DNA from: Escherichia phage vB_EcoP-101114UKE3
Strand: one strand, 5' to 3'
Sequence record: NC_070982.1
DNA: 64,000 bases
Shown: positions 9,605-53,816 of the stretch, one piece after another
How positions within the stretch are numbered: the first letter of the stretch is position 1
Layout of the letters: each line of letters opens with the position of its first letter
Made by a program: the position numbers and the translations under genes
Notes under the pieces: generated by a model
Seen by the model: the letters and a program-made list of their open reading frames with translations, nothing else
The model's database searches: none
What the model was told of the DNA's origin: nothing

Positions 9605-10402
9605 ATGGATAGGATTTTAGGAGTTTCAGAACTAGACCCACTGGTTCAACAAGCTGCTAAGAAGTATGGTATTCCTGCTGCTCTTGTTCATGCGGTGATT
9701 CAGAGGGAGTCTAGTGGTAAACCCTCTGCCGCTTCAGGAACAGGGCCAGTAGGATTGATGCAGATTAGTAAAGGCTTGGCTAAAGATTATGGATATAAAC
9801 TTGAAGATAGGTTAGACCCTGCAAAGAATATTGACATGGGTGCTAGATATTTAAGAGATAACCTGAAAGCTTTTGACGGCGATGTGAGGAAGGCTTTGGT
9901 GGGGTATTCAGAAGGGACTGGTGGTGCTAAGCAAATGTTTGCTGGTAAGAAAGGGTTTACACCTCAAGCTTTAGATTCAATGAATAATAAGCTGTTCCTA
10001 CCATTCTTTGATAAGAACACAGCAGCGGCACAAGTGGCTAATCCTGTAGGTGCTTTGAAAGCAGTACAGCCTGTGGACCAGTTTGATTCTAATACGCTGA
10101 CTAGAGAAGGTGCTGCAAATGCTCCCACTCAAGCAGAGATGGCTGCAAGCAAGGCTGGGGCTTTGGGTGGTCGTCCTGTAGAGTTTTACTCTGATGAACA
10201 ACAGTCTGGAGAAGATCAAAAACCTCAACAGAACTTTGGTAATGCTGTGTTGGCAGCTGCTTCTATGCTTGCAGGAAAACAGCCTAACTCTCAAACTGTA
10301 CAGAGAGCACACGCCCCTACTCAAGCAGGTTCTCGATATAGTCCACAAACACAAGCTGTGCTGAGACGTCTGTCTAGCATAGGTACTGACATTTACAGAT
10401 AA
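9605..10402 (+). CDS. virion-associated lytic transglycosylase (SLT domain)
   Basis: IQRESSGKPSAASGTGPVGLMQI matches SLT catalytic E-S...GLMQ motif. Confidence 0.75.
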   Translation: MDRILGVSELDPLVQQAAKKYGIPAALVHAVIQRESSGKPSAASGTGPVGLMQISKGLAKDYGYKLEDRLDPAKNIDMGARYLRDNLKAFDGDVRKALVGYSEGTGGAKQMFAGKKGFTPQALDSMNNKLFLPFFDKNTAAAQVANPVGALKAVQPVDQFDSNTLTREGAANAPTQAEMAASKAGALGGRPVEFYSDEQQSGEDQKPQQNFGNAVLAAASMLAGKQPNSQTVQRAHAPTQAGSRYSPQTQAVLRRLSSIGTDIYR

Positions 10403-10411
10403 GGAGGACTT

Positions 10412-11464: not shown

Positions 11465-11473
11465 GGAGGAGCT

Positions 11474-26381: not shown

Positions 26382-26693
26382 CTACTTCTCCACCACAAAG
26401 AGGTTAACTTCAATGAAAGTTTCGTATTGTGTTGACTCCTGCTTACGGGTGTAGTAGAAATGACGACCTTCTAATGCACCTCCGTACTGAGTGGCACATC
26501 TTTTAACCATCTCTTTTATCACATCTACAACTGATTCGCCTTTCCACGGACGTAACCCCTGAGTTGGGACTTTTGCTGTACAGGTTACTTGTGTGTAACC
26601 TACATCTTGTAGAGATATCTCAAGAATCAGCTTTGCCCAAGCATCAAAATTAAGCTTGGGGTTATATTTAACTTCAGTTTTGATATCAATCAT
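26382..26693 (-). CDS. hypothetical protein
   Basis: 103-aa ORF coupled downstream of DNA polymerase. Confidence 0.4.
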   Translation of the reverse strand: MIDIKTEVKYNPKLNFDAWAKLILEISLQDVGYTQVTCTAKVPTQGLRPWKGESVVDVIKEMVKRCATQYGGALEGRHFYYTRKQESTQYETFIEVNLFVVEK

Positions 26694-28537
26694 TAGTGAG
26701 TATGATTCCAGTTTAATCCAATCTTACAATCTGATGCAAGAGGACATTCCATCTTGAGGTATTCCCCTGCTTTACGAACACATTCTTCAGTGAGGGTACG
26801 AAGTTTGTTAACATCATCACGATGTACAGTGAACTGTCCTTCATCATGCATGTCAATAACCTTCGCACAACGAACACCATCCCGCTCAATCCATTTATTG
26901 AGGAATAGCATTGCATACTTCATAACAATCGCCCCAGCGCTCTGTAAGAGTGTATTTAAGGCTTTATGGACCATAACCTTTCCAGTTGCATCTCTTCTCA
27001 TTGTAATACGACGTCCATCCACACCGTAGATATATCCACTTTGCGCTTTCTCTGTCATACGTTCAATAAGGATTGCAATACAAGGGTTCTCTGCTAAGAA
27101 TCTTGCTCTCATGATAGCCCCTTCGTCAGAGCCACCACCTACAATACTTCCTAACTTAGCGTCACCTGCCCCATAGTTAAAGGCATAGATAAACGTTTTA
27201 GCATTATCACGAGTAGGAAGGCCAGCAAGTTTTTGGTTATGTGAGTGAATATCTCCTTCTAAAAGAATATCTCTATACATAACAGCAGAAGCTAGACCAC
27301 GTTCAGCTTCTCGTTTCTTAGCCGGGTTGTTTTCTCGCTCTGCTTCAGCGAGCATCTCACGACATTCTTTAATAAGGTAGTGAGCTAGCATCCTCAGCTC
27401 AAGACCAGAGCCATCGTAACCTAAGAAGATTTCACGACCAGCAGGAACATAGAACTTATAGGCACCTACGGGTTTGTCTTTCTTGCCCGGTTTTCCCACT
27501 TCGTAGATAATGTTAGTACCCTTTCGTACGTAACACCCATCAGGGATATGGTTGGTAATGATGAAAGGATGGTTATGACTATCGTCTGAGGAATAGTCAG
27601 ATTGAAAAAGACTGCGGCACTCGTGACCAAACAAACCGCGAGAAGGAATATTAACAACAATGCGATGTTTAAAACGAAATGTCGGAGTAGCGCAGCTATT
27701 AGCTTCGGCGGACAACTTACCATCTTTACGTTCCTTGTCGATAAGCCCGCTAATCAAACCTAGCCTGTGAGCCGCTACAACGCGTCTCTTAAGCAAACTT
27801 CCTACACCCCCTAGCTCACCCCCAAGCCCCTCTTCAAGAGTCTCCTCAAGGTTTGTAGGGGCTGTGGGCCACTTGTTTGATGTAGCCAAAGCTTTTTTGA
27901 TTTCATCAAAGGTTACAGGTTTCTTCCTATTCGGATTAAGACCTAAACCACTGACGTAGGCTTTCATGTAGTTGACAGTGTGATAACGGAAATGTTTATC
28001 CAAAAATCTTCGGATATCAGCATCTATCATCTCCGCTGTCTGTTTCTCTTTAGCATTACCTCGAATCCAAGCAGAATACCATGCAGAGTATGTACCATAC
28101 TTCTTCATAGCTCTACGGATTTCAAATGTATTCCAAGGTTTCTTAGAATAATTCCACTCTGGAGGTATGAAGCCCTCATCCATCAAGGCTTCTTTAATAC
28201 GTGCATCTTTCGATGGGTCGAAGTCTACATACTCAACGCAAGTAAACGCCCCACCGATATCTTCTCTTTTAAGACCAACCCTATCGCAATAGAGCTGAGG
28301 CCACTTCTGTAAAGCACCTGATTTCTTAAAAGGCTTAGCATAAGTTGAACCATCCACCCGCATTTTAGGGAGGAGAGGAATCAGTTCTTTATCAATATTG
28401 ACAATAATCTCTTTGAGAAGGTGAACAAACCACCGAGCGTTTCTTCTGTTGAAGTTGACTCCATGCTTCGCTTGTTTTGAGATTATATCAGCGACTGTCA
28501 TCTCCGTTATGAAAGGTAACTTATCAGGGTTATCCAT
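26693..28537 (-). CDS. DNA polymerase, family A (polymerase domain only)
   Basis: motif A FLGYDGSGLELRMLAHY, motif B RDNAKTFIYAFNYGAG, motif C VHDE; ATG 28537 with AAGGAG SD (track start 28540 is GTG). Confidence 0.85.
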   Translation of the reverse strand: MDNPDKLPFITEMTVADIISKQAKHGVNFNRRNARWFVHLLKEIIVNIDKELIPLLPKMRVDGSTYAKPFKKSGALQKWPQLYCDRVGLKREDIGGAFTCVEYVDFDPSKDARIKEALMDEGFIPPEWNYSKKPWNTFEIRRAMKKYGTYSAWYSAWIRGNAKEKQTAEMIDADIRRFLDKHFRYHTVNYMKAYVSGLGLNPNRKKPVTFDEIKKALATSNKWPTAPTNLEETLEEGLGGELGGVGSLLKRRVVAAHRLGLISGLIDKERKDGKLSAEANSCATPTFRFKHRIVVNIPSRGLFGHECRSLFQSDYSSDDSHNHPFIITNHIPDGCYVRKGTNIIYEVGKPGKKDKPVGAYKFYVPAGREIFLGYDGSGLELRMLAHYLIKECREMLAEAERENNPAKKREAERGLASAVMYRDILLEGDIHSHNQKLAGLPTRDNAKTFIYAFNYGAGDAKLGSIVGGGSDEGAIMRARFLAENPCIAILIERMTEKAQSGYIYGVDGRRITMRRDATGKVMVHKALNTLLQSAGAIVMKYAMLFLNKWIERDGVRCAKVIDMHDEGQFTVHRDDVNKLRTLTEECVRKAGEYLKMECPLASDCKIGLNWNHTH

Positions 28538-34897: not shown

Positions 34898-35088
34898 TAT
34901 CTGTCAACCGATTTAGGGACAAACTGCATTACACAGACCTGACTACGAGGGAGATTTATTTCACAAGCGGCTCTTCTCGTCTCAATCTTAACGCTAGAAT
35001 CTGGACCAACGTTAGATATAAATACTCCCATAGCAAATGCCCCAACTACAAAACCTATAGCTAAGTAAGTAGCTTTTTCTTCTTTCAT
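34897..35088 (-). CDS. small membrane protein
   Basis: TM segment LAIGFVVGAFAMGVFI. Confidence 0.35.
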   Translation of the reverse strand: MKEEKATYLAIGFVVGAFAMGVFISNVGPDSSVKIETRRAACEINLPRSQVCVMQFVPKSVDR

Positions 35089-35093
35089 CTTGG

Positions 35094-35627
35094 TTATACA
35101 CCCTTAGATGCAACTACACCATTACTGCCGTTGTATCGACCCTTCACTGCATAAGAGTCATCACCAGCGTGAGAGTGTTCGAACATAACCATTTGACCAA
35201 CACGCATCCCAGCACGAACTCGTAAGCTATGATTATGGGTAACGTTATGAAATTCAAAGGTTAGTTTACTGCTGTTAAACCCTGCATCAGCCCAACCAGC
35301 ATGGAGGTGGTTTAAACCACAACGAGCCATTGAGGAGCGAAGTACAAACAGGCTTGAGATGTTATCTGGAAGGTTAAACTCTTCCATTGAGTGCGCTAAG
35401 AAGAATTGCCCCGGAGTGATAACAATACCATCTTCAGGGATTTTTACTTCTTTCCACTTGAGGTTTTCTTTAGCATCAATGTCAACAATTCCGTCAGCCT
35501 GTTCTTCAACAAGGATAGTATCACCAATACGGATATCCACGCTAGCAGCGTTAACATATTTATGCTCCGCATCTAAAAAGCCATTATCAATAACGCTGTG
35601 TAATTCTTGAGAACCTAAAAGACTCAT
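35094..35627 (-). CDS. dcd: dCTP deaminase (dUTPase-fold)
   Basis: HAGWADAGFNSSKLTFEFHN motif. Confidence 0.7.
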   Translation of the reverse strand: MSLLGSQELHSVIDNGFLDAEHKYVNAASVDIRIGDTILVEEQADGIVDIDAKENLKWKEVKIPEDGIVITPGQFFLAHSMEEFNLPDNISSLFVLRSSMARCGLNHLHAGWADAGFNSSKLTFEFHNVTHNHSLRVRAGMRVGQMVMFEHSHAGDDSYAVKGRYNGSNGVVASKGV

Positions 35628-37087
35628 GAGTTTCTGTTTCCTTGTACAGATGATGCCAAATTATTAATCATGTTACGAGCTGTTTCACGAGATAGTGTAA
35701 CACCTGCTAAGTTGTTATGAAGCTCACCAGATAGCTCACGAGCAGCAGCTCGAAGTTCTGTACCAAGTGTAGTATCGGAGTGAGCCAAACCATTACGACG
35801 ACTATAAGGTCGAGGAGCTTCGTTAGCGTCATTAGCCAATGATGCAAAACCAATATGAGCAGCTTCACGAGACGCTATAGTTGACACTCGATCTTCCGTA
35901 GGGGTTGGCAAATCACCAACTTCTACACGTTCTATATCACCAGCACGTAGACCCTGAACGACTGAGCTTACTGTTTCCCATGAACGACGAGAACGCTGTA
36001 AATCACCCATTGACGGAGAAGAAGCAGGTCGAACAGTTACTCCACCTGTATCATGAGTGACATGCCATGTACGAGTATCCATTCCAGAAGAGCGTGCACT
36101 ACCAAAACTGCCAGTGAAAGTGTCACGAGGTGCCATTGTAGGAGGAACTGCGAATCTTTCCTGTTGCCAAGAATCGCGTCTGTTAGTTCCCGGAGTCCAA
36201 GGCTGCGTGATTGCTTCAGCACCTATAGTGGTTAATCCGCTAGACCATTCTGTCTGTAGGTTAACTTCCTCGTCCAGATAACTACGACCCCTTTCCTGAG
36301 GAATGTTTAATATAGTTTCCATCATCTTCAGGGTATAATGACGACGCTGATTCTGATATAAATTTACACCAGCCATAGGTCCAACTAAATCACTAATCAG
36401 GTGAACTTCTGGCTCACCGAAAGCTCCCATTGCAAGGTGCATATATTCGGTAGAACTGCTATAAACTGCAACAGTTGCTTCAGGCCACTTCTTGTGAACA
36501 TACTTCATTTCACGACCAGATACCACAGGAATGTCACGAGTGTATGACATTGCAAACAAACCTTCGTTTGACACATACATGTCATCAAGAGACATGAACC
36601 CCTGACAGATCATAGGAAAGCGACGGCTTAAAGTATCCATATCCAAAGGTAGATTAATCATCATCTGGATTTTAACTTGATCAATCTCAATTTCCAGAAT
36701 CTCTTGGAAAGTGAAAAGTGCTTCAGCGTAAGTTGTCCCACTAACAGGCTGAACTAGGCGAGATGTAGTTTGAAGCCCTTTACTCTCTGTCCAAGACAAG
36801 AAGTTGTCAAGGAACAGTGCAGCATTCATCACGTTAGCAGGGTTGTTTTCCTGACGGGTGTTCCAACGAAACCCTCCTTGGACTAGGAAGATATCCACAT
36901 CATTCGGAGTTCGGTTCTGGAAGAACGTATCACGGATAGCACCACCTGCAATAACAGGGTAGATACCATCAGGAACTACGTTGTCTCTGATCAGATTGCG
37001 AATCAGATCAAGCCCTACGCTGAGGGCTTCTCCTTCTTGAAGGTTTAATTCAGACAATGGAATCTTAATCATTTCTACATTTTCCAA
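35624..37087 (-). CDS. nucleotidyltransferase (CCA-adding/poly(A)-polymerase-type head) with low-complexity C-terminal half
   Basis: [10 protein letters not shown]...DVDIFLV polymerase-beta-type NTase motifs; C-terminal 230 aa S/T/R/A-rich. Confidence 0.5.
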
Positions 37088-37623
37088 TTTAGAGATGGGG
37101 GATTCTTATAATCAAATCCAGCCATTTGGCAAAGACACATGTAAACCTTAACTGTCAAGTTAACGTCTTGCTCACAATACGTGAACATGTCTTCAGTGAA
37201 TGCATCCCATGCTTCTTCCTGTTCACCATAATCACCCTTCAGCTCTCCCAGAAATTCGCCCCATTGCTTGAGGCCATGACCGCGAGGGCCATGTCTAGGG
37301 TCGCCTTTGGGGTATTCTGGACTATCACCAATACGGTCAGGCTTGAGATATCTACTCAGGCACAAAGTATCGAAGACGTTAAAGCGAAAAGGTATCACAT
37401 GAGAATAAAACTTAAACAAAGCAGGAAGGTCAAAATCAATAATATTGTGACCTATTACTACATCAGCTTCTTTCAGTTTGTGTAGTGCTTCTTCAATTTG
37501 GTGAGGGCGATACCCCCACCGCTCTCCAGATAATACATCAAATATCCAGATACACCAGACATTCTGAATACCATCATAGAGATTATCACCCTCGATATCA
37601 AACGCATACAGTTTCTTTACCAC
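37075..37623 (-). CDS. DnaQ-like 3'-5' exonuclease (stand-alone)
   Basis: Exo I YAFDIEGD, Exo II HNIIDFD, Exo III YCEQD. Confidence 0.6.
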
Positions 37624-39407
37624 GGACGTGCCTCCCCTTCCTGTGCAAGTAAGGAAGCTGCATCCTCTCCATTGGTAACGGTAAAAGGATGCTCTTCATC
37701 AACTTCATGATCTTCTCGTTCTACAAGACGACCTGTTTCGTTAATGTATTTGGTATAGCAAACCCCTGTCTGTCCATAGTTACGCTCTTTGAGCAGTCGT
37801 ATGATTGACAAGTTTTTACCTAACCCATCCGCTTGTTTGTTACGTTCAAAACCAATAATACACTGACACCAGCGCATCAATGAACGTGAACCAGTAAACT
37901 GTACTTCTTTAACCTGACCACCTTCTTCGTGAGGTGCACCACCTGCCGGAGCGTTCAAGTGAGATAATACAAAAGCAGTGAAGTCTAATTCCTTACACAT
38001 ACCAGCAAGCTCTGAAGCAATCTTGCTGATTTCTGTGTTTACCTCAGATGGGGTTAAGTGAGATACCAATGCAGTGATGTTATCAAGAATGATAAATTTA
38101 CACTGATTCTCAACTACCCAAAAGCGAATACACTGCTTAATGTCTTCCCACTCGTTCTGCCCAAAGTTGTCATACAAGAAAAACTTATCAGCGTATCGAA
38201 GTGCTTCATCTCGTAGCTGGCTTTCTTCGTACTCAACATCTGGTCGGTGGAATGGAATAGATGCAGATTTACCTGCAATGTTCTTAACAGACATGCCTAC
38301 CTTCTCTTCCAAGAAGAAGCCACCACCATTAAAACCATGCTCAAGGCAAAGCCATGCTACTAGTTCGTGTGCGATTAAGGTTTTACCTGAACCAACACCA
38401 CCGCCGATTGCAACCATCTCTCCCCAACGAATACCAAAGGTCATGTCGTTAAGAGTTTTCCACGGATAAGGAATACCCCATTCCGCTTTCTTCAGAGCAT
38501 CTTCGAGGCAATCAAAAACTGTAACAGCTCCAGCAGGAGATTCCCGCTTAGCTGAATATTTCAGATTGTTGAAAAGCTCTTGACCTCTCCCTGCAAGTAA
38601 CATGTCGTTTGCATCTTTGATTTCCTTTTCTTGTCCGTTATAAGTGAACGTACCTTTTGGAATCCTTGCAAACTTAACATGCGGGTACAGAGAACGACCC
38701 TTAGTTAAAGCAATCTCACCTGCATCATCATTGTCCATGCAGAGTACAATCTCCTCGAAACCATTAATAAAATCACGGTTTCTTGATAATACAGAAGAGA
38801 TTGAACCTGCACCGAACGGAAGAGAGACGCAAGCAGGTTTGATGTTAGTTGCGTTTGTAAACGCGGTAAGTACGTGGAACCCAGACATACAAGAGAGAGG
38901 ATCTTCAAAGATGAAGAGTTTCTTGTTGTATACGTCACCACGTTGTGCTTGAGCCATACCAAACAAGTCGGCTTCTTTCACATTACCTACATAATAGAAC
39001 TTCTTGCTGTCTAGAAGTTTTACTTCATATCCAACAATGTTCCCATCACGTTCACGAGGGAAGAAGTAGCTGTCAGGAGTTTGACCATCTGTTTGGCTTA
39101 AACCGATACGGCATCCATAACGTTCAGATACAGCTTTAGGAATTAAGCGACGAGTCAACTCTCCCTGAGGAAGCTCTAAGCAATCGTCTAAGACTTCTCG
39201 GAGTTCTTCAGGGGACAGCTCTTTCTTTTCATTAGGAGTGGGCGTCGTTCCTTTCTCGAAGATTTCATACGCACCACATCTGTTACATGAACCCCACTCC
39301 TCACCGGACTCTTCATTTCGGAAGAGAATCATGTGATTGCGGGTCTTATCACGACCATGAGAGATACACTCTTTACAGCCTGTGTCTCCCAAAATGATCT
39401 TTGACAT
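37617..39407 (-). CDS. primase-helicase
   Basis: N-terminal Cys4 zinc ribbon, [13 protein letters not shown], Walker [10 protein letters not shown]. Confidence 0.85.
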
Positions 39408-39442
39408 GCTCTATCCTCCTTGGAATTCCTTGAGCAATCTTC

Positions 39443-39650
39443 TTAGTAAAACGATCGTATTTCTTCCCACACATCATCTTGCAAGTTTCTAAAACCCTGC
39501 AAGGTTTGCTTTGTTCTGTGAATAAATTCTTCAGAGTGCTTATCAGGTGTGAGCATACTGACAAACTTTTCATAGCGATTAATCTTCCACCGCATCTTCA
39601 AGTAGTCAGATTCCAGCTTTCTTAACTTCTGCCTGTCAGTTACTGTCATC
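39443..39650 (-). CDS. hypothetical protein
   Basis: start MTVTDRQ at 39650; track start 39745 would overlap GGCT gene. Confidence 0.3.
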
Positions 39651-40067
39651 CTTCTCACCTGCCAGATATGCTGTCCAGTCACCAGATTCAACCAGAACAT
39701 CTTGTTCTTCGTCGATGTGATAAATCCACGCTTCCACAGTTTCACCGCTGTCCAATAATACTGGAATCAGTGTACGCTTGTAAAAGGTGTATGGGTTATC
39801 ATTACCACGATGACCTTCCAGACCGTCATACGGACCTTCCAGACCAGCTTGGGTTGTTTCAAAGACTTCTACACGAACAGGCTTACCATTGCTGTCATGC
39901 TCCAAAGATACACTTGGGAAGTATGCTGTGCAATACTGATACAGGTTACAGTTGTTTACTGTCCACCCTTCACCAATAGACACACCACCTGCACGAGCAT
40001 TGATAGCGTGGTTGTGTTGACCTTTACGAAGAGAACCATACGTTGCAACTAATACTTTATCAGACAT
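39636..40067 (-). CDS. gamma-glutamyl cyclotransferase-like (AIG2/GGCT fold)
   Basis: N-terminal VATYGSLRKG motif. Confidence 0.6.
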   Translation of the reverse strand: MSDKVLVATYGSLRKGQHNHAINARAGGVSIGEGWTVNNCNLYQYCTAYFPSVSLEHDSNGKPVRVEVFETTQAGLEGPYDGLEGHRGNDNPYTFYKRTLIPVLLDSGETVEAWIYHIDEEQDVLVESGDWTAYLAGEKDDSN

Positions 40068-40071
40068 TACA

Positions 40072-40269
40072 TTACCTTTTGTTTAAAATTTCTTTTGTAC
40101 AAGAAGTCCCGTTACACACGAGAACTGTTTGAGTTATAGAATCGACAACTGTTACATGGCTGCCGCATTGAGTTATGATTTGACCTCTCCCTGAATCTTT
40201 AGAGATGCATTCATCAGCGGCGATCGCTGACACACTGAATAAGGAGAGGAAAAATAGAATCTTTTTCAT
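40072..40269 (-). CDS. small secreted Cys-rich protein
   Basis: signal peptide MKKILFFLSLFSVSAIAA; 6 Cys in mature part. Confidence 0.4.
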   Translation of the reverse strand: MKKILFFLSLFSVSAIAADECISKDSGRGQIITQCGSHVTVVDSITQTVLVCNGTSCTKEILNKR

Positions 40270-40275
40270 GGCTGC

Positions 40276-40692
40276 TTACCAATCATGTTGGAAACCAGAA
40301 TATCCAGAGAAGATGATTGATCGGATTGGCTTTTCAGGGAATCCTTCAAAACATCCCTTAATGGCTTTCTTGGTTTCATCAGAAATTGACTCTTTTTCAC
40401 CAAACCAATATTCTTCAAAAATATCAGAGAAGATATAAGTTCGGTATCTTTCCAAGTCATAAAAACCTTCCACTGCACTTGTAACAGCTCTACTAATTAC
40501 ACTTGAAGCTACAGGAAATAAGTCACCGTGTTCCAGAAACAAGCACCAACGATCAAAGAGAGGAATCTCTTCATCTTTCAGAAGACTTTCTAACTCTTCC
40601 TTTGCCTCTTTCTTGTGCTTCTCAAAGAGGTTTTTGGAATACTCTACATCTAAGATACGACTTTTAAACATATCCAGTTTATTATTAACCAT
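40276..40692 (-). CDS. hypothetical protein
   Basis: 138-aa ORF. Confidence 0.4.
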   Translation of the reverse strand: MVNNKLDMFKSRILDVEYSKNLFEKHKKEAKEELESLLKDEEIPLFDRWCLFLEHGDLFPVASSVISRAVTSAVEGFYDLERYRTYIFSDIFEEYWFGEKESISDETKKAIKGCFEGFPEKPIRSIIFSGYSGFQHDW

Positions 40693-40718
40693 TTTACAAC
40701 CTCTAGTTAAATTCGAAC

Positions 40719-40742
40719 TAGCCTCCTCTTTCGAAGAGGCTA
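40719..40742 (-). promoter_or_regulatory. intergenic RNA hairpin with GAAA tetraloop
   Basis: perfect 10-bp stem on minus strand (C-A mismatch on plus strand); no U-run. Confidence 0.35.
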
Positions 40743-40749
40743 AAGCAAA

Positions 40750-40935
40750 TTATTCTACTTCGAAGTGTTTGATCACACCAGTCAGTACATCAGATTGGAA
40801 TGTACCCACTAGCTCTGTACCTCGGAAAAAGTTAACACTTGTTCCAAGTGATTCAAAGCGATCTGCTTGAATGTCCAGAGATTGAATATTTCCTTCTGCT
40901 GACATTGTACGAAACATGATTGTGTATTTATTCAC
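40750..40935 (-). CDS. small hypothetical protein
   Basis: 61-aa ORF. Confidence 0.35.
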   Translation of the reverse strand: MNKYTIMFRTMSAEGNIQSLDIQADRFESLGTSVNFFRGTELVGTFQSDVLTGVIKHFEVE

Positions 40936-41174
40936 AGACTCGTTACTCCCTTATCTGCTTGTGCAATTGCGATGATACGCTCAGCACATTCCATTGAATA
41001 CTTATCACCTCGTTTGAGGAAGGTGATGATTGCAGAGAACTGATTACCAATCATTCTCTTATTTGTGATACCAAACTCTTCACAGAGTTGGTTGATAGCT
41101 TTACGAGAGCCTACAATCAGAGGCTCTTTTTCTTCGGTCATTCCACGGCTGATCAAATCTTCGATAGACAACAT
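40932..41174 (-). CDS. small hypothetical protein
   Basis: 80-aa ORF. Confidence 0.35.
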   Translation of the reverse strand: MLSIEDLISRGMTEEKEPLIVGSRKAINQLCEEFGITNKRMIGNQFSAIITFLKRGDKYSMECAERIIAIAQADKGVTSL

Positions 41175-41200
41175 TACAAATTCCTTTTTGTTTAATTTAA

Positions 41201-42436
41201 TTACAGAGTTACTGCTACTTCGCTACCTTCAACATTGACAGACTCTAACTTGCGAGGGTTATGAATCTGGACTGGATTGACCGGAACGTTCCAACCACTG
41301 CGGTAGAAGTTACGACCATCACAGAACAAAATGACATTGGCAGACATTGCATTCGGTTGAAGGTTGTTGTGGACGTGACGGATATCTGCAATCCAGTAAC
41401 CACGAGACAAAGTGTAACCAGTAGGTGCATTACGAATAGTTTGAGTATTCATCTGACCTTCTAGCTGCATTTCTTCAGGAACTACATCTACCGAATCAAC
41501 CGGCTGTGCTACTTGTCCTTCCAGTGCAAAGTTTTCATCATCAGCACTTTCAATATCATCCACTAACTCACCGTCTCCATCTTCAATCGGAGTCTGGTAA
41601 ACCACTTTATACTGAGGAGTATAGAGAGGGTTCTGAGCTTTAACAAACTCAAGAATGTTATGACGGTAGGTATCCAGAGTTGTACCAGTCAGGCCCGGTG
41701 CTGTATTAACTTCCAGTACCCACGCTTCTTGACCTTTGGTGATAATATCAACTGCACCGAAATCCAGACCCATTGATTCAACAGCTTTCACTGCATTGAT
41801 CAGAGAGGCGTCATTCGGAGCATCTGTGAAGGAGCTTGAGTAAACCCAGCCAGTGTGGTGATTACGAATATCTTCACGATAGTTAGGGTCTTCGCGATAA
41901 CCATTGCGACGAATCTTCTTCTGAACATAGGTGATTACACCTTTGAACACATGGACACGCCACTCACGACGTGGGCCTTGAATGCCTTTAGTGTACAGTT
42001 CAGCTCGACCAAGACCATCACCCGGTTCTACAACAACAATGCCCGAACCAGAGTGACCAGTCAGCTCATGGCGCTCATACACAATATTACCAGTGTTTGA
42101 CCACTCTTGAGCAGTCTCTTGAACATCTGTGTATTCCACAGTTTTAACACCTGCTTGGTCCATCACGCTGAAAGCACGACGTTTGTTCGCTGCCATATGT
42201 AAGGCTGCGGTACGGTTAAGGACGGTTGCAGAACCAAAGAATGATTCAGGATAGCGACGGTTCCCGTAGTTAACAACCACATCACCTTCACGAGAACGCC
42301 AGCGGCTATTCTCTGAAAGAAGACCCATCACGTTAGCATTGATGCGTTCATCACGGATAGTATCACTGATAGCAGATACTAGAGCGTTAACAGAATCAGA
42401 CGGGCCATACGGAAGAACACGGATACGAGTAGTCAT
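41201..42436 (-). CDS. ATP-grasp amidoligase
   Basis: C-terminal WVLEVNTAPGLTG ATP-grasp signature. Confidence 0.75.
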   Translation of the reverse strand: MTTRIRVLPYGPSDSVNALVSAISDTIRDERINANVMGLLSENSRWRSREGDVVVNYGNRRYPESFFGSATVLNRTAALHMAANKRRAFSVMDQAGVKTVEYTDVQETAQEWSNTGNIVYERHELTGHSGSGIVVVEPGDGLGRAELYTKGIQGPRREWRVHVFKGVITYVQKKIRRNGYREDPNYREDIRNHHTGWVYSSSFTDAPNDASLINAVKAVESMGLDFGAVDIITKGQEAWVLEVNTAPGLTGTTLDTYRHNILEFVKAQNPLYTPQYKVVYQTPIEDGDGELVDDIESADDENFALEGQVAQPVDSVDVVPEEMQLEGQMNTQTIRNAPTGYTLSRGYWIADIRHVHNNLQPNAMSANVILFCDGRNFYRSGWNVPVNPVQIHNPRKLESVNVEGSEVAVTL

Positions 42437-42438
42437 TT

Positions 42439-42669
42439 TTAGATACCTTTTAGTTTAAGAATTTCGTTACGACAGGATTGAATTTTAGCTTCGATTGCCC
42501 AATACTCAGCGAACATTTCGTCTTCTTGGGCATCGCTTGGAGAGTCGATTAAGTTAAAAGCAAACGGATACAGCTTTCGCTGCTCCGTTACCAGTTGTTG
42601 AAGTCGGAGTTGTTGATACTCCAGCATTGTCAGGTGAGGCTTAGCTCCCTTGCTTGACATGAGGCTCAA
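42439..42669 (-). CDS. small hypothetical protein
   Basis: 76-aa ORF. Confidence 0.35.
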   Translation of the reverse strand: MSLMSSKGAKPHLTMLEYQQLRLQQLVTEQRKLYPFAFNLIDSPSDAQEDEMFAEYWAIEAKIQSCRNEILKLKGI

Positions 42670-42874
42670 CTTTAATCCCCTTCATTTTAACATAGTCAGC
42701 CAACACGTTATTGATAACGGTTGGAAAAGGGATTTCTACTGGAGAGTCAACCAGCTTCCCAATACCTTCTTGCATCCACTTCTGGATTGCTCGGAGGTTA
42801 TCACATCCTGTGCTTGTCATCGGAATACGGCGGGTAGTTACCACGTTATCCAACATCAGTTTACGAACTTCCAT
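42641..42874 (-). CDS. small hypothetical protein
   Basis: 77-aa ORF overlapping previous by 29 nt. Confidence 0.35.
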   Translation of the reverse strand: MEVRKLMLDNVVTTRRIPMTSTGCDNLRAIQKWMQEGIGKLVDSPVEIPFPTVINNVLADYVKMKGIKVEPHVKQGS

Positions 42875-42885
42875 AACTATACCTC

Positions 42886-44919
42886 TTAGTGTTTACCTTT
42901 ACAGTAATCTGAATTACAGATCACCCTGTTTTCTTTGTTCAGTGAGCAAGTTTCTGCATCACGCCACGGAATTTGTTTATAACAGACTGCACAAAACCCA
43001 ATTGAAGTCCAGAGGGCTTTTGTAAACTCAGCTGTTCGTTGTCCATCGTAACTGACAACTGTTTTTCGGAGAGAGGTTGACTTTTCTGGAAATGTCTCCG
43101 CTTTCTCAGCGGGTACCTCCTTTGGGGCATTCTTTGGACCATAAACAGAGATGGCATAAGTATCACCACCACGTTTTTCCAAATACGAATTAGGAACATC
43201 TGCAAGTGTGATGTCCCCTGAACGTTTTGCTGAGCTGACCATTACAATCATACGGCTAAGCATACGTTCATCAACACGAACAGCTACTTCAGGACGACGT
43301 GGGTTGGTTGTGTCTACTGCTTTAGTCCAAATATAACCTTCAGATAGAGTAACATTCTTTACTTTATCTTTGATTTCTTTGGAGCAGATATAACAAACGT
43401 CTTCACCACGAAGTTTACTCATTTCGTTGTCAAACTCGAAATCAGTCTTGACTTCACCACAGATAGCACATACACCCAAAGGCACATCTTCTTCCTCTTC
43501 AGAGGTTTTAGATAACGCTTCGAAGCATTCTGGATGCCAGTATGCCTGATAAGCAAACACAGCCTTACGAGCATCTTTCCAGTCAATGTGCTTATCACAA
43601 CCACCACAGTCACCATGAGAGTGAGATTCCCAGAACTTACGAGTGACTTCTACACCATTCTTAGTGATGAAGGAGTCCTCTGCATCAAAAGGGATATCAT
43701 CATCAAAATCAGCAGTAGTGCTTTGAGGCTCCTTATCTGTAGCATCAACAAACAGCCCTGAAGTTAGTACGAGGCGAATCATACTGTCCACTTCGGAGAT
43801 ACAAGCAATCGTCCCGCGATATACTACCTTTGGGTTTTCAAGAGCCTTAAGATATTCATCTTTGGCTACGTTGTGAACATCCCCTTCGACATACTCTTGA
43901 GCTTTATCATCGTAGATGTAACCAACCATCTTACCACGATCTGTGTTGTTATAAGCATGGAACTCGTGAGGAATAATATCCACACGACCATCACGACGAT
44001 AAGGAAGACCGCGATCGGCAGCCAGTTTGTTCTGGTCTTCAATCGCTTTACGACGACGAATGTCTCCGCTTGTCACGCCGGGCTTGTCGTCTTTGTTTCC
44101 GTAAATGTCGCTTGTGCTGCTGCTTGATTTGTTTGTCTGTTGGTTCTGATAAAGAGAGGAGTTCGAGTAATAGCCGCCCCAGCGACTCGTTACCGTAAAA
44201 ACCGGAAGCGTGTGCTCCACCTCTTGAACCAGAGTCATACGACTGTTAGACACATCAAAGATATACTCAGTTCCCACTTTACATTCGAAGTGGTCATTGA
44301 TATGGTTCTTATGGGACTTAGAACGCTCTAAAATCCACATAAGCATAGCTTCTTCAGAAGCTCCAAACCAATCCAAACCACAGCGGGCTAGGTGGAAAGG
44401 ACGCTCATCATTACGGATAATGTGAAGTGTGTTGTCTTTAGCATCATGCCAAATCAAAGTGAATGCACCATCCAGTTTTTGGATAGTCTCTGCTGCTCCA
44501 ATGGTGTTAATTGAGTGGCAGATGTTTTCACTATCAACTTCGAAACGCTTACTGTCAGGAAGGAGATCTTGATCTAACAGGGTTCCATTATGAACCAGAG
44601 TAATATCCCCGTGAGTAAATGGGTGAGCATTTCGAGCATTGACAGCCCCACGAGTGGCATGTCGGCTGTGACCAACAATCCACGAAGGAGGAACTACGTA
44701 GTTCGTAAGCCCTTTGGTAATATTTGTATATTCTGTCTGGAGCATAAAAGCATAAGAAGGAAGAGCTTCTTTATAAGAGAAGACTTGCTTTTCACCTTTA
44801 CGCTGACCAAACACACCAGTTGAGTGCTGTCCACGGAAAACACCAGCATACAGAAGTTGGTTGAAAATGTCCAAATCTGCTGAGGTCATGTTGCCGCCAG
44901 CTAATACGATACCACAAAT
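42886..44919 (-). CDS. class-II (Ntn) glutamine amidotransferase fused to Cys-rich Zn-ribbon region; proposed AUU start
   Basis: CGIVLAGGN...YAGVFRGQHSTGVFG and HSRHATRGAVNARNAHPF...LVHNGTL match PurF/AsnB-type domain; catalytic Cys lies 9 codons upstream of track ATG (44889), preceded only by ATT then AAA then TAG, with AGGTGG SD 8 nt before ATT. Confidence 0.65.
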   Translation of the reverse strand: MCGIVLAGGNMTSADLDIFNQLLYAGVFRGQHSTGVFGQRKGEKQVFSYKEALPSYAFMLQTEYTNITKGLTNYVVPPSWIVGHSRHATRGAVNARNAHPFTHGDITLVHNGTLLDQDLLPDSKRFEVDSENICHSINTIGAAETIQKLDGAFTLIWHDAKDNTLHIIRNDERPFHLARCGLDWFGASEEAMLMWILERSKSHKNHINDHFECKVGTEYIFDVSNSRMTLVQEVEHTLPVFTVTSRWGGYYSNSSLYQNQQTNKSSSSTSDIYGNKDDKPGVTSGDIRRRKAIEDQNKLAADRGLPYRRDGRVDIIPHEFHAYNNTDRGKMVGYIYDDKAQEYVEGDVHNVAKDEYLKALENPKVVYRGTIACISEVDSMIRLVLTSGLFVDATDKEPQSTTADFDDDIPFDAEDSFITKNGVEVTRKFWESHSHGDCGGCDKHIDWKDARKAVFAYQAYWHPECFEALSKTSEEEEDVPLGVCAICGEVKTDFEFDNEMSKLRGEDVCYICSKEIKDKVKNVTLSEGYIWTKAVDTTNPRRPEVAVRVDERMLSRMIVMVSSAKRSGDITLADVPNSYLEKRGGDTYAISVYGPKNAPKEVPAEKAETFPEKSTSLRKTVVSYDGQRTAEFTKALWTSIGFCAVCYKQIPWRDAETCSLNKENRVICNSDYCKGKH

Positions 44920-44996
44920 TTTCTAATCCACCTGAAGGGTAAACCCTTTCATCTAATTAACCTTTAAATGCGCCCTGTATAAGAGCGCCCGTTGTG

Positions 44997-46097
44997 TTAC
45001 AGCAGTCGTTCTAATTGCATTTCCAGATGGTCTGGAATATAACCAGTGACGTTATCATCACTGCTACCTGATTCACGCATCAATGCAAACATGTGACGAA
45101 TTTCACGAACCGTTGCGATTCGAGTGCTTTCAATCTGAGGGGTGTAGTAGGTCATGATCTCTTCGTAGACACTGTTGGCATTACCGCGCACATATCCCAA
45201 GAAACCATAGAAGTCATTCATATCACGTAAGTTGATAAGGACTTCACCATCAGGGCCAGTCTGTTGCACACGAACACGACCAACCAAAGTTACAGATTGC
45301 TCACGACAGAAGAGAATATCACGAGCAAGACGATACCCTTCAGTGAGATCACTGTCTCTTGGAGTATAGTCTAGGGGTAGATGTTGAATCATAGGAGCGA
45401 AGCGCAGCTCATTCAACTTCTCAACATAAGCTTCATTGTCTAAATCTGCATATTCAACAGCCAGTTTCTTGAGAACCAAGAAGCGGTTGACCAGATTCAG
45501 AAGTTGGCTCTTTTTCCACTTCGGCTCTGAGATACGGAACTCAACAGAACCAAATTGAGATAGAGGCAAAAGATTAAGGGAGGTGTATTTATCCCAGCTA
45601 TTAACAAGAGAGTGGAAGAAAGCTTCCCCGTCTCGGTTGAACGCTGACGAAGCATTCATAACTTGTGCTTGAACGACAGCAAAAGCTGGACAGAAGTTGC
45701 TACGATAGCGATGGTATCCAGAACATTTGAACATCATCTTTTCATAGAACGTCCATCCAAGAATAACTTTCTTAAGGATATTACTATCAGCGTCACGCAT
45801 ATCCATATGAACGTGAGTGGAGCAGCGCCAAGTTCCCTCGGCTCCAGAATCCTGTACTGCTTCACTCAGATTGTTAATAGCACGAAGTAATTCTTCACCG
45901 TTGTAAGGTCGTGCACATACTAATTCACAACCATCACGAAGAGAGCCATCTTCAGTACAAACCCACATATCAGCGTCAATGTCAGTTGTACCTTCGACTT
46001 CTAACTCAATACCAACACCACACTGAAAAGCAATACTTGGATGCGGTTCAGATAAGCGAGGGTTACGGTATCCAAAAACTTGTGCTACGGTTGTCAT
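44997..46097 (-). CDS. amidoligase (glutamine synthetase/GCS-like fold)
   Basis: GIELEVEG ... CSTHVH motif pattern. Confidence 0.5.
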   Translation of the reverse strand: MTTVAQVFGYRNPRLSEPHPSIAFQCGVGIELEVEGTTDIDADMWVCTEDGSLRDGCELVCARPYNGEELLRAINNLSEAVQDSGAEGTWRCSTHVHMDMRDADSNILKKVILGWTFYEKMMFKCSGYHRYRSNFCPAFAVVQAQVMNASSAFNRDGEAFFHSLVNSWDKYTSLNLLPLSQFGSVEFRISEPKWKKSQLLNLVNRFLVLKKLAVEYADLDNEAYVEKLNELRFAPMIQHLPLDYTPRDSDLTEGYRLARDILFCREQSVTLVGRVRVQQTGPDGEVLINLRDMNDFYGFLGYVRGNANSVYEEIMTYYTPQIESTRIATVREIRHMFALMRESGSSDDNVTGYIPDHLEMQLERLL

Positions 46098-46720
46098 AAT
46101 GATTCCACCAACTCTACATTATATGATGACAGGTCTGAAGAAATATGCTTGAACTTCTCCAGAAGGTTTAAAGATTGACGACCATTGTCGCCATAACCAG
46201 CTTCAAGAAGCACGTTTCCAACGTAAGCCCCTTTGTAATAAACTTTTCCATCGACAGGATTGATATAGATGAAACGAGTAACCAACCCTTCAAACTCTGG
46301 ATTAAACAGGTTATACACCAAATCACCCGGAATCGAACGTCCGAGAGAAGGTGGAGTACCACGAAGTTTATTCCCCATCAAGCCTTTAGCTCGCTGACGA
46401 ACAGGGTTGATATGGGTCCAGCTCACCACGTTATTACCATGCTGAAGGTATCCTACATCTGGAGACTCCAGAATGAGGCTGTGATCAAACACTGGGATAT
46501 TACTAACAATCTGACGTTCAAACTGACCTTCGGAGTTTTTAGTCCAGCGTTCCGCCTCAAACACTAAAGACATTTCAGCGTCGTGTGAGTAGTCGTCGAT
46601 ATCAAAGTTACCTTGCTGACGAACATCAAGCACATATAGAGGGAGGTTTTTACCATCAGGTGATCGCTGAGCAATCCATGTTCCACAATAATAGTGTTGA
46701 AAATCTCTTAACAAGCTCAC
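46094..46720 (-). CDS. hypothetical protein (cassette member)
   Basis: 208-aa ORF translationally coupled within cassette. Confidence 0.4.
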   Translation of the reverse strand: MSLLRDFQHYYCGTWIAQRSPDGKNLPLYVLDVRQQGNFDIDDYSHDAEMSLVFEAERWTKNSEGQFERQIVSNIPVFDHSLILESPDVGYLQHGNNVVSWTHINPVRQRAKGLMGNKLRGTPPSLGRSIPGDLVYNLFNPEFEGLVTRFIYINPVDGKVYYKGAYVGNVLLEAGYGDNGRQSLNLLEKFKHISSDLSSYNVELVESL

Positions 46721-46729
46721 AATATCACC

Positions 46730-47536
46730 TTATACAATCTGGAGTTTAGAGGAGAATTTATCTGCTTCTTTAACATCGTTACTGTTGATGATGTTGTGAA
46801 GCTTTTCAATTGGAAGGCGAGAGTGAAGTGACATCAATACTTCCATATCACAGCCTTGAACAACCTTATCAACTTGCTCATAAACAAACTTGCGGGTTGA
46901 CTTCTCGCCAATCCAGAAGTTAGAAAGAGAACGATATTCAATACCGTAATCCTTGTAACGAATGGCAGAAGCCTTTCCGTATAACTCTTTACGACGAGTG
47001 TCTTTATCCATGATTACAGCTGGCAAGGACAGGAAATAATCACACAACACACCCAACATCATTTGAGTTTGTCGAGTAATCTCTAAAGTCCCGGAGACAC
47101 CAAGGTGCACATGACCCCCAGCAGTACGCAAACCCTTATTAGTTGCGACCGGTGAAGGGTTCTTTTGTCCAGTGAAGGCATTGAAATCAGGAGTACAACC
47201 AAATACAAAGGCTGACGGATGGAAAGATTCAAGCTCTTCTGAAGTGAACACATGAGAGCTAATCCCAAGTGCTGCCTCCATGCCACGTTCATTGAGAACT
47301 TTGTTAGTCAGATCAATACCACGCTGAATGTTATCATCAAACGCTTCAAACCCTTCCTGTGGGTTAATATCAAACTCGGCCAGAACGTTGTCTTCTTGAA
47401 GACGAACATCAGGAGCCAGATCAATTTTATTGTCTTTAGAACAGCCCAGCTTACCAGCCACAGAGGTGATAATACCGGAAGCAGTACGAACAAACATTTC
47501 AGGGTCAGAGCCAATAAGGAAAGCGCGCTTAGTCAT
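46730..47536 (-). CDS. COOH-NH2 ligase-like protein (second amidoligase)
   Basis: start MTKRAF at 47536 with GGAG SD; GSDPEMF ... GCTPDF ... GGHVHLG motifs. Confidence 0.5.
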   Translation of the reverse strand: MTKRAFLIGSDPEMFVRTASGIITSVAGKLGCSKDNKIDLAPDVRLQEDNVLAEFDINPQEGFEAFDDNIQRGIDLTNKVLNERGMEAALGISSHVFTSEELESFHPSAFVFGCTPDFNAFTGQKNPSPVATNKGLRTAGGHVHLGVSGTLEITRQTQMMLGVLCDYFLSLPAVIMDKDTRRKELYGKASAIRYKDYGIEYRSLSNFWIGEKSTRKFVYEQVDKVVQGCDMEVLMSLHSRLPIEKLHNIINSNDVKEADKFSSKLQIV

Positions 47537-48479
47537 TGTAATACTCCACGAGTTCATCAAAAAGGGAAACAACACGAGCACCAGCTTCTTCTGGTGTCAT
47601 TGAGGAAGGTACTGCTTGCATCAGACGTTCGATAAAACTTTGAACAGTAATTCTGTCCATACGCTGATCTAATACTTCTCGCTTGTGACCTGCACAAGTT
47701 GACCAGAGACGTAACCACTCACTCATACTCTCATAATGGTCAGGGTCTTGGTCACGACGACGTGCCATACGACGGAGAACTCCATCATTATGGTTTCGTA
47801 CATAACCATCTCGGTTGTCATCAACACCGAATACATTCTGAACCCATACGTTTTCAGAAAATTCATCAGTGGTGCAAATTAATGGCAGAAATGCAATTGC
47901 ACTCATGTCGCCATCAAAATAAGTCGCTGCTGACTCATCGGTTGAGTCTACGTCATTACTATAACACCAGCGACCAAAGAAGTTACGACTTAAACCAGCT
48001 AAGCGTAGAGCTAAACCGATTCGTTGTCGCTTAAGCAACTCTTCCTTGTCTTGTACGCCTTCCTGAAGGAACTCCATTCCATTAAAATCACCATCCAAAT
48101 AGCTACGGATGGTCATTAGTCCAGTAAACACCTTGTCTGCTGGATGGTTTCGAAGGTTCACGGCAATAGAGTTCACCGAAGTGACAGAGAACATATCTTT
48201 ATAGCAAGACATTGAGTTAAAAATGTCTGTTGCTTCAACTAAAGCTCTTTCGATATCTTTAGCTGGTACGCCATAAAAATTGTGAGGCCAGAAGTTAATA
48301 ACTTCAATTTCTGAAGTTCTGTCACGAAGGCTTGTTCGGTTACGACTTTCACCGTTAATGTCTGTAACAGAATACATGTGCATACAGTTAAAAGTACCAA
48401 AGCAAGCTCTTCCTTTGAACACTGACTCACCGAAATCCTCTGCCGGTGTTACCGGAGCAATCGATGCGGAGATTGACAT
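47529..48479 (-). CDS. hypothetical protein (cassette member)
   Basis: 316-aa ORF. Confidence 0.45.
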   Translation of the reverse strand: MSISASIAPVTPAEDFGESVFKGRACFGTFNCMHMYSVTDINGESRNRTSLRDRTSEIEVINFWPHNFYGVPAKDIERALVEATDIFNSMSCYKDMFSVTSVNSIAVNLRNHPADKVFTGLMTIRSYLDGDFNGMEFLQEGVQDKEELLKRQRIGLALRLAGLSRNFFGRWCYSNDVDSTDESAATYFDGDMSAIAFLPLICTTDEFSENVWVQNVFGVDDNRDGYVRNHNDGVLRRMARRRDQDPDHYESMSEWLRLWSTCAGHKREVLDQRMDRITVQSFIERLMQAVPSSMTPEEAGARVVSLFDELVEYYND

Positions 48480-48487
48480 ATTCGCCT

Positions 48488-49705
48488 CTATTTATTAAAG
48501 AATAATTTTTCCATAATGGTTTCCCACTCTTCTGAGGGGAGGGTTGAGAACCCGTTTCCGTGAAGCCTGTTTGTCATGCAACTAATAATATTGTACATGT
48601 TGTAGCTTCGGGTGGATTCTGTTCCATTGTTCCAGTTATAACCGAAAACAATTTTATCGAAGGAGGTTTTATCCGTAGTTACTTCTCGGATGAACTCAAC
48701 CAAGAGCGATTTCTCTGTGATGACCGCACGTTCACCATCTGGCAGATTACAATACTGAGGAAGAAGAATTGGTAAGAACATCGAATTGTTCACTCGACAA
48801 TCACGAACATCTTCACTGCGATAGATTAGGCTTGAGAAGTCTTCATCACGCAGGTGTCCTTCACCTTCAGTGTATTCACACTGTCGCCATTTGGTCTGAC
48901 GAGGTTCAATCATTGTACTACCAACGCCTACTGTATACAGAGACGCTTGGAAGATACACGAGTCGTAATCATTCCCTGTTAAAGCAACTTGCTCATTGCC
49001 GAACACATCCACTGAAGAGTTAATCAGTCGGCTGAATGCAAGAGAGGCTAGTGGAGACCAACCTTTCTTATACATCTTGTTCAGCATTTCATACACAGCA
49101 GATTTTTCATCATCTGTATAGAATGTACGATTCAGCATCAGATAGAACAGAGCGCGATCAGCAGGACAACCATCAGTACAAACACCCATGAATCCTACTT
49201 CATGCCATACCAGACATGAGTCAGAATCTTTATCCATGAATGCTTCAAAGGCTTCCATTACAGCCCTGTCAGTAACATCAGGACGGTTGTTTTCTTCTGC
49301 CCATGTTTCTACATGAGAAGGAGGACGAGGGTCTCCATTCTCCACCCCTTCGCGGAAATATTGAGTGGTAATAGGCTTTTTATCACCATAACGTTTTACA
49401 CCATAAGCGGGAAGGTGTGTACCAGAGTTCCAGATGTACTTAATTTCGGACATAGGCATCATGTTTTCGAGAACGTTCTCTTCAGCAGTGCCTTGACGAA
49501 CCATCATATTTTCACTCCACACCTTAATGCGGATATTCCAGCCGTAGTTGCTGTCATACGTGTTATAATAATCAGGATCACCATCTTCATCTTCATCATA
49601 ATCACCACCCTGATAGTAACCTGCTTTCAGGAAACCATAACAAGGAGGCCAGACGGTTACAACATCATCTGATTCTTTCCAGCTTTGAAGTGTTACAGGG
49701 AACAT
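48488..49705 (-). CDS. hypothetical protein (cassette member)
   Basis: 405-aa ORF, acidic N-terminus. Confidence 0.45.
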   Translation of the reverse strand: MFPVTLQSWKESDDVVTVWPPCYGFLKAGYYQGGDYDEDEDGDPDYYNTYDSNYGWNIRIKVWSENMMVRQGTAEENVLENMMPMSEIKYIWNSGTHLPAYGVKRYGDKKPITTQYFREGVENGDPRPPSHVETWAEENNRPDVTDRAVMEAFEAFMDKDSDSCLVWHEVGFMGVCTDGCPADRALFYLMLNRTFYTDDEKSAVYEMLNKMYKKGWSPLASLAFSRLINSSVDVFGNEQVALTGNDYDSCIFQASLYTVGVGSTMIEPRQTKWRQCEYTEGEGHLRDEDFSSLIYRSEDVRDCRVNNSMFLPILLPQYCNLPDGERAVITEKSLLVEFIREVTTDKTSFDKIVFGYNWNNGTESTRSYNMYNIISCMTNRLHGNGFSTLPSEEWETIMEKLFFNK

Positions 49706-53740: not shown

Positions 53741-53816
53741 TGGTGCGCCCTACAGGACTCGAACCTGTAACCAATAGCTTAGAAGGCTACTGCTCTATCC
53801 GTTGAGCTAAGAGCGC
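53741..53816 (-). tRNA. tRNA-Arg(UCU): tRNA-Arg (anticodon UCU), CCA encoded
   Basis: hand-folded cloverleaf: 7-bp acceptor, D arm GCTC/GAGC, anticodon loop CTTCTAA, T arm ACAGG-TTCGAGT-CCTGT, discriminator A plus CCA. Confidence 0.85.

Follow-up and report, generated by a model that had tools for sequence, protein, structure and literature searches.

A nucleotidyltransferase gene with a class-II-type head and a predicted disordered tail in a phiEco32-like podophage

A stretch of 64,000 nucleotides of Escherichia phage vB_EcoP-101114UKE3 (NC_070982.1; called the window for simplicity) was analysed with respect to one minus-strand gene, which encodes a nucleotidyltransferase (NTase) and lies between the genes of a DNA polymerase proofreading subunit and a dCTP deaminase. 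We are highly confident that this is a real gene of phiEco32-like podophages, that its product is a catalytically intact NTase of the Pol-beta superfamily, and that the protein consists of a catalytic head (residues 1-160) remotely homologous to the class II head of CCA-adding enzymes and poly(A) polymerase I, a lineage-specific region (residues 161-283) and a disordered tail (residues 284-482). Positions 35000-39500 of the window are 100 % identical to Escherichia phage vB_EcoP-101114BS3 (MZ234015.1; Gordonclarkvirinae, phiEco32-like podovirus) and 87-99 % identical to about 20 phages of the ECBP2, SU7 and EK010 types. The list of open reading frames (ORFs) confirmed the frame from 37087 to 35624, and the protein contains the motifs GGAIRD and DVDIF, which a preliminary description made from the letters of the stretch had pointed out. 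The TTG at 37087, at which that description let the gene begin, is merely the earliest possible start. All homologues begin with MI.IP, which matches an ATG at 37072, and the GenBank annotation of MZ234015.1 starts the 482-aa coding sequence (CDS) at the same ATG, indicating that the true start lies 15 nt inside the coordinates first reported. The protein is matched over its full length by PHROG 12715 with an expectation value (E) of 2e-165.

The residues expected of an active NTase are retained throughout the family. Among 28 aligned members, G43, G44, R47, D48, D58, D60, F62, Y115, I125, Q136, P153, Y191 and K195 are invariant, and positions 124 and 188 are acidic in every sequence (28/28). 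GGAIRD occupies residues 43-48 and DVDIF residues 58-62. Both motifs of the Pol-beta superfamily (hG[GS] and [DE]h[DE]h) are invariant: G43-G44 stands before helix 44-51 and D58-V-D60-I lies on strand 58-65, and in the predicted model a third carboxylate is found on a later strand of an alpha/beta NTase fold, so that the assignment to this superfamily stands as first made. The pattern of class II motif A (GGxVRD, 8-10 residues, DxD) is present as well. The third metal-binding carboxylate is probably E124, as judged by inference from alignment and model. In the conserved helix R187-P197, which is a candidate contact to the nucleoside triphosphate (NTP) or its triphosphate moiety, E or D at 188, Y191 and K195 occur in 28/28 members and K, R or H at 194 in 26/28. 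Given the invariance of motif A and the acidic residues at 124 and 188 throughout the family, the enzyme is probably catalytically competent. The ratio of nonsynonymous to synonymous substitution rates (dN/dS) lies at 0.03-0.10 in residues 1-215 and drops to about 0 in residues 216-285.

The AlphaFold2 model, built with a family alignment of just 28 sequences, reached a predicted local distance difference test score (pLDDT) of about 85-95 for residues 1-283 and fell below 50 for residues 284-482, in which a few low-confidence helices were placed. A model of the domain alone gave a pLDDT of 84.9 and a predicted template modelling score of 0.85. Residues 216-283 are confidently folded and constitute the most conserved stretch of the gene. 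Among five close relatives, codons 196-295 (36188-36487, minus strand) are near invariant even at synonymous sites, with a dS of 0.02-0.17 vs 0.15-0.45 in the N-terminal part; neither a promoter match nor a stable RNA fold was found as a cause of the invariance of these codons. The positions of all features are collected in Table 1.

Table 1. Features of the NTase gene and its two neighbours in the window, with the basis of each assignment.
Feature	Position	Strand	Basis
NTase CDS, 482 aa + stop	35624..37072	-	ORF list, GenBank CDS of MZ234015.1, homologue N-termini, PHROG 12715
Folded part, residues 1-283 (1-160 class-II-like catalytic head; 161-283 lineage-specific alpha/beta + helical)	36224..37072	-	model
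Motif A, residues 41-62: helix-capping GG, catalytic D58 and D60	36887..36952	-	invariant residues, alignment to CCA-adding enzymes
E124, probable third metal-binding carboxylate, on strand 122-130 beside invariant I125	36701..36703	-	acidic in 28/28; strand from model
Helix R187-P197, signature R-[DE]-x-x-Y-x-x-K-K-x-P	36482..36514	-	conservation among 28 members
Predicted disordered tail, residues 284-482	35627..36223	-	pLDDT <50, composition, dN/dS
Hypervariable, indel-rich segment, codons 296-345	36038..36187	-	40/60 alignment columns vary, five close relatives
Conserved C-terminal 45 residues	35627..35761	-	near invariant in genus-level relatives
Upstream gene: 3'-5' exonuclease (proofreading) subunit of split T7-like DNA polymerase	37075..37623	-	T7 gp5, PF01612, PHROG 403 / 38876
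Downstream gene: dCTP deaminase, 177 aa, start overlaps NTase stop	35094..35627	-	PF22769, E 1.6e-34; PDB dCTP deaminases

Comparison of the predicted model with the PDB by Foldseek returned class II CC-, A- or CCA-adding enzymes in all of the top 33 positions (E about 1e-4). In the superpositions, 145-160 of 285 residues fit class II enzymes of 344-517 aa, corresponding to the head domain, whose predicted fold is nearest to that of class II enzymes. Since about 150-160 residues alone superpose, the neck, body and tail domains are missing. The kinship with CCA-adding enzymes and poly(A) polymerase noticed at the outset is thereby upheld, these being the nearest solved structures. At the sequence level, the family profile matched CCA-adding enzymes of the PDB (6IBP and 7OTR, E 0.004) over motif A alone, and its hhalign alignment to E. 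coli Cca was confined to the same motif; under relaxed settings the alignment extended colinearly, with a posterior confidence of about zero around residues 187-195. The window protein itself gave no phmmer match among PDB sequences and no match in the Pfam, NCBIfam and PADLOC scans, PF01743 being unmatched even at E<=1. The gathering threshold of PF01743 is 23 bits. A scan of all 28 members yielded sub-threshold matches in 18 of them (best E 2.5e-4), and ten relatives scanned singly reached 16.7 bits at best, covering profile positions 3-25 and at most 3-52. The profile search and structure prediction suggested in the preliminary description thus gave a divided answer, with a class-II-type head fold on one side and no member above the PF01743 cut-off on the other.

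In class II enzymes, motif B (RRD) reads the ribose 2'-OH, and in CCA-adding enzymes motif D (EDxxR) serves as the amino-acid template for CTP and ATP. At the place which, on the basis of class II enzymes and the E. coli Cca sequence, we take to be that of motif B, the 28-member alignment shows no conservation of RRD: the window protein has RRF at 150-152, other members have AAT, LDN, HDA, MDS and others, and the following F-P alone is conserved. No EDxxR is found in the protein, the R-[DE]-x-x-Y-x-x-K-K helix (187-195) being colinear with motif D in a region where the hhalign confidence is about zero. Whereas class II NTases (bacterial and eukaryotic CCA-adding enzymes, E. coli poly(A) polymerase I) carry RNA-binding body and tail domains, the phage protein continues with a different region of about 120 residues and a disordered tail of 200 residues. 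A stand-alone "CCA-adding enzyme head domain" is known from Streptococcus pneumoniae (NP_344798.1, PDB 2LA3); it is bacterial, 191 aa long and without a tail.

Although its head is of the class II type, the phage protein is therefore no canonical CCA-adding enzyme when judged by family criteria, and the original naming as such is not supported: the PF01743 threshold is missed, RRD is unconserved, no EDxxR is recognisable, and neck, body and tail are lacking. A canonical enzyme which adds or repairs CCA and restores nuclease-damaged tRNA 3' ends is accordingly improbable, despite motif A, the head fold and the annotation of the SU10 orthologue gp74 as a CCA-adding-type enzyme in 2014 (PMC4281155). 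Besides the poor agreement in motifs, domains and PF01743 score in all members tested, the host has a Cca of its own, and the single tRNA of the phage, a tRNA-Arg (anticodon TCT, 53741-53816, minus strand), has its 3' CCA encoded in the genome. For the latter reason, the idea that the phage must synthesise CCA on this tRNA was rejected.

The family itself is narrow. An exhaustive phmmer search of 1.84 billion cluster representatives retrieved 27 clusters with lengths of 274-482 aa, all of them matching through the N-terminal 200-330 residues, and in the same scan the tail alone found no match outside the family. A word-indexed protein search, run first with the single sequence and later with the family profile, recovered family members only and no bridging families. 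The proteins phiEco32 gp73, SU10 gp74 and PHROG 12715 are orthologues, encoded at the same place between the exonuclease subunit and the dCTP deaminase. Within the genus-level group their cores share 87-100 % identity, compared with about 30 % to phiEco32, and all carry a long variable tail of genus-specific sequence and length (482 aa in total here, 437 in phiEco32, 426 in EP335). In a Foldseek search of BFVD, the nearest proteins after a phiEco32-like orthologue were head-only proteins of 167-220 aa from Autographiviridae-type phages, described as "nucleotidyltransferase / poly(A) polymerase head". They include LKD16 ORF16 and proteins of Pectobacterium PP2, Providencia PS3 and Aeromonas phiAS7 (Foldseek E 1e-9 to 1e-4 and template modelling scores of up to 0.63 on the target, between predicted structures), and they have neither the additional folded region nor a disordered tail. 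The family profile aligned with LKD16 ORF16 over 40 columns at motif A with an hhalign probability of 35 %. LKD16 ORF16 is located in the replication module, between helicase and ligase. Gp22 of the Klebsiella phage fHe-Kpn01 is possibly of the same head-only kind; this 182-aa class-II-like NTase is toxic in E. coli (PMC7291057).

The tail differs from the core in composition and evolution. Residues 271-482 are rich in S (11.3 %), T (10.8 %), R (10.4 %), A (9.9 %) and G (8.5 %), and residues 284-482 contain no lysine and have a net charge of 0 and an isoelectric point (pI) of 7.2. The entropy of 30-residue segments is 3.1-3.6 bits in the tail vs 3.3-3.9 bits in the N-terminal part, and repeated 5-mers are absent. 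GC contents at the three codon positions are 0.60, 0.59 and 0.23, and among relatives the indels are in frame and the dN/dS of 0.22-0.45 is indicative of purifying selection. The tail is truly coding and biased in composition but not repetitive. A second fused gene or a wrong reading frame was rejected as its origin in view of the coding periodicity, the purifying selection and the short-tailed relatives, in which no separate downstream ORF is seen. The preliminary description had spoken of a disordered C-terminal half of 230 aa with S/T/R/A-rich low complexity. Predicted disorder and compositional bias were found, but the disorder extends over about 200 aa (284-482), as residues 216-283 are folded, and the sequence is not of a repetitive kind.

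Conservation along the tail is mosaic. The hypervariable codons 296-345 follow directly on the invariant codons 196-295, and at the other end lies the conserved C-terminal segment, which is modelled with helices at 435-451 and 462-478 (pLDDT about 50) and may be a docking element. Nine of 24 family members outside the genus of the window phage have an aromatic last residue, W, F or Y (P0026, P0029, P0031-P0034, P0036, P0041 and P0045 in our numbering), and the window NTase ends in NRNS. In phage T7, the C-terminal Phe of gp2.5 and gp4 docks on the polymerase. The aromatic ends of several short-tailed relatives resemble these T7 residues and, together with the disordered tail, its conserved terminal segment and the translational coupling to the proofreading subunit, they would fit a mainly non-catalytic replisome accessory whose tail and C-terminal segment dock on the split polymerase, the helicase or the thioredoxin, the NTase site being vestigial. 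We consider this very improbable, since the catalytic residues are invariant over deep divergence with a core dN/dS as low as given above, the tails are not acidic, and the window tail lacks the aromatic end.

Scarcity of lysine after the core is common to the family: all members carry a tail of 54-275 residues that is S/T/R-rich and contains 0-2 % Lys, compared with a median of 5.8 % in the large ORFs of the window. This could reflect avoidance of self-modification or of conjugation by the host, and would be in line with a role in host takeover or counter-defence, in which the enzyme nucleotidylylates a protein (perhaps its own Ser/Thr-rich tail) or a small molecule, or makes or consumes a nucleotide signal. 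The toxicity of fHe-Kpn01 Gp22, which is related in fold, and the place of the SU10 orthologue, identified by one peptide in mass spectrometry, in the list of early gene products (PMC4281155) would agree with such a role. Nevertheless we regard it as unlikely, because both the nearest fold and GGxxRD are specifically indicative of the class II branch that modifies RNA ends, no PADLOC defence model was matched, and no partner gene is suggestive of a target. The trait is moreover not specific to the NTase, since lysine-poor proteins are also found among other, possibly structural, genes of the phage. The plus-strand ORFs 8561-9595, 10412-11464 and 11474-12442, at the opposite end of the window, are as poor in lysine as the NTase (0.9, 2.3 and 1.2 % Lys, respectively), and the latter two are paralogues with 29 % identity. 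The avoidance of lysine may extend more widely, to some other proteins of the phage.

The neighbourhood of the gene is devoted to DNA replication and precursor supply. The sequence ATGA at 35624-35627 contains both the TGA stop of the NTase gene and the ATG of the dCTP deaminase gene, and the TAG stop of the exonuclease-subunit gene at 37075-37077 lies 2 nt before the NTase ATG; in several distant relatives, a 4-nt overlap exists between this stop and the start of the NTase gene. The tight coupling to both neighbours was already apparent in the preliminary description. The exonuclease subunit matches residues 4-142 of T7 gp5 (E 4e-8), and pairing of the NTase with an RNase D-like RNA enzyme was rejected because this neighbour corresponds to the exonuclease domain of T7 DNA polymerase. 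The T7-like polymerase is split: about 10 kb and some 22 genes separate the sequence for its 182-aa proofreading domain (37075-37623, minus strand) from that for the 614-aa polymerase subunit (about 26693-28537, minus strand), and the genes for the NTase, the dCTP deaminase, a Dps-like protein, thioredoxin, ThyX and PhoH are found between the two parts. The deaminase resembles both mono- and bifunctional (dUMP-forming) dCTP deaminases of the PDB. Together with ThyX and a deoxynucleoside monophosphate (dNMP) kinase, it represents an ordinary supply line of deoxythymidine triphosphate (dTTP) for an AT-rich genome.

In 96 phage records, the NTase family occupies the same locus. Five longer contigs (23-89 kb) of distant members with 22-26 % identity show the same gene order, namely GGACT, primase/helicase, polymerase exonuclease subunit, NTase, a 177-aa dCTP deaminase, and thioredoxin with ThyX, and in 3/5 contigs a Dps/ferritin-like gene is inserted between deaminase and thioredoxin. 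In one distant phiEco32-like relative, a metagenomic contig of 88.7 kb (L015), genes for an RtcB RNA ligase and a Macro-domain protein (10001-11616) follow ThyX, about 3 kb downstream of the NTase gene, a hint that in some lineages the module also includes functions of RNA repair. Upstream of the primase/helicase gene of the window (about 39636-49500, minus strand), a cluster annotated in Bas87 encodes a gamma-glutamyl cyclotransferase, a RimK-like ATP-grasp protein, a glutamine amidotransferase, an amidoligase and a COOH-NH2 ligase. This cluster is the "ligase pathway" to which nucleotidylation by the NTase had initially been tied; no link between the two was found, and of the cluster only GGACT was seen to be kept beside the replication genes in the distant relatives.

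The conserved locus of dCTP deaminase and nucleotidyltransferase was noted in the BASEL paper (PMC11990801), whose authors described the Gordonclarkvirinae as unusually resistant to restriction-modification despite having no known modification pathway and for this reason speculated on DNA modification via the locus. A DNA-directed enzyme working with the replication and deoxynucleoside triphosphate (dNTP) module, by adding dNMP to DNA 3' ends or by a covalent modification that protects from restriction, is possible, though we think it rather unlikely. It would account for the order of primase/helicase, exonuclease subunit, NTase and dCTP deaminase being kept at such low identity and for the overlap of the NTase start with the exonuclease-subunit stop. 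The loss of the ribose-sensing RRD would be compatible with the use of dNTPs, and the structurally similar LKD16 ORF16 likewise lies among replication genes. We compared restriction sites in window positions 1-64000 with the expectation from a third-order Markov model. Sites for EcoRV (27 vs 29 expected), EcoKI (6 vs 6.5) and EcoP1I (104 vs 96) and GATC (124 vs 124) occur near expectation and EcoRI sites are mildly low (8 vs 13), so that the reported resistance is not explained by loss of sites. In contrast, CCWGG (0 vs 76.5), CTGCAG (0 vs 18), GAGCTC (0 vs 16) and GCATGC (0 vs 9) are avoided, and the EcoBI site occurs 7 times vs 18 expected. The full avoidance of CCWGG, CTGCAG and GAGCTC indicates that the DNA is still vulnerable at many sites and argues against a blanket base substitution. 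Furthermore, no DNA modification pathway with a class-II-type NTase head is known, and dCTP deaminase, ThyX and dNMP kinase are fully accounted for as dTTP supply.

For the function of the NTase we tentatively favour template-independent addition of nucleotides to RNA 3' ends. To our knowledge, the characterised members of the class II family all act on RNA 3' ends, and because these form the nearest structural family, this activity appears the most likely one. What the analysis itself shows is the gene with its synteny and fold, its conserved catalytic residues, its disorder and its pattern of selection; from these we infer which acceptor and nucleotide the enzyme uses and what its tail does. 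In the proposed mechanism, D58, D60 and E124 would coordinate two metal ions for the transfer of a nucleoside monophosphate from an NTP onto a terminal 3'-OH. Lacking the templating motifs of the neck and the body and tail domains that measure tRNA, the enzyme would not build CCA at canonical fidelity and might instead tail or repair the ends of tRNA or of other host or phage RNA. The flexible tail could recruit a substrate or a partner in place of a rigid RNA-binding domain. The motif A match to CCA-adding enzymes, the Foldseek ranking and the weak PF01743 matches in 18/28 members speak for addition to RNA ends, and we also count in its favour the early listing of SU10 gp74 and the RtcB and Macro-domain genes close to the NTase gene of one relative. 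The toxicity of Gp22 in E. coli fits an action on a host component.

Several observations weigh against RNA 3' ends as the target. Motif B, the reader of the ribose 2'-OH, is unconserved, which weakens the case for ribonucleoside triphosphates and an RNA acceptor, and motif D is absent or unrecognisable. With its neutral charge and pI the tail does not readily suggest an RNA-binding arm. In the five longer contigs, the gene stands within a DNA replication and dNTP module and not beside tRNA or RNA-repair genes, and the lone tRNA of the phage comes with its CCA encoded. Moreover, the structural evidence is a predicted model from 28 sequences, and literature searches found no functional or biochemical study of the family.

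The protein is already catalogued as PHROG 12715 and as "nucleotidyltransferase" in RefSeq and was flagged in two papers, and it is at present an annotated enzyme and not a discovery. The failed tests of membership among CCA-adding enzymes, the domain boundaries, the lysine-free disordered tail with mosaic conservation throughout the family, the deep conservation of the locus and the structural link to the head-only NTases of other podophages are new here. A more speculative proposal, to which we give little credence, is that the NTase supplies the missing part of a so far undescribed activity, either nucleic-acid modification or end tailing, which would underlie the restriction resistance of Gordonclarkvirinae, with the lysine-free tail tethering it to the replisome; if true, this would be a new job for the class-II-type NTase head. 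Independently of the function, the lysine-free and fast-evolving tail offers a clean case for the study of disordered regions in phage enzymes. The phages concerned are therapeutically relevant, restriction-resistant coliphages, and genetics of the NTase is feasible because BASEL isolates (e.g. Bas87 with a 92.6 % identical protein) infect E. coli K-12. Replication modules of podophages repeatedly hold head-only class-II-like NTases. Once found, the substrate of the present family would reveal either a new RNA-end-modifying mechanism of host takeover or a new DNA-directed use of this fold.

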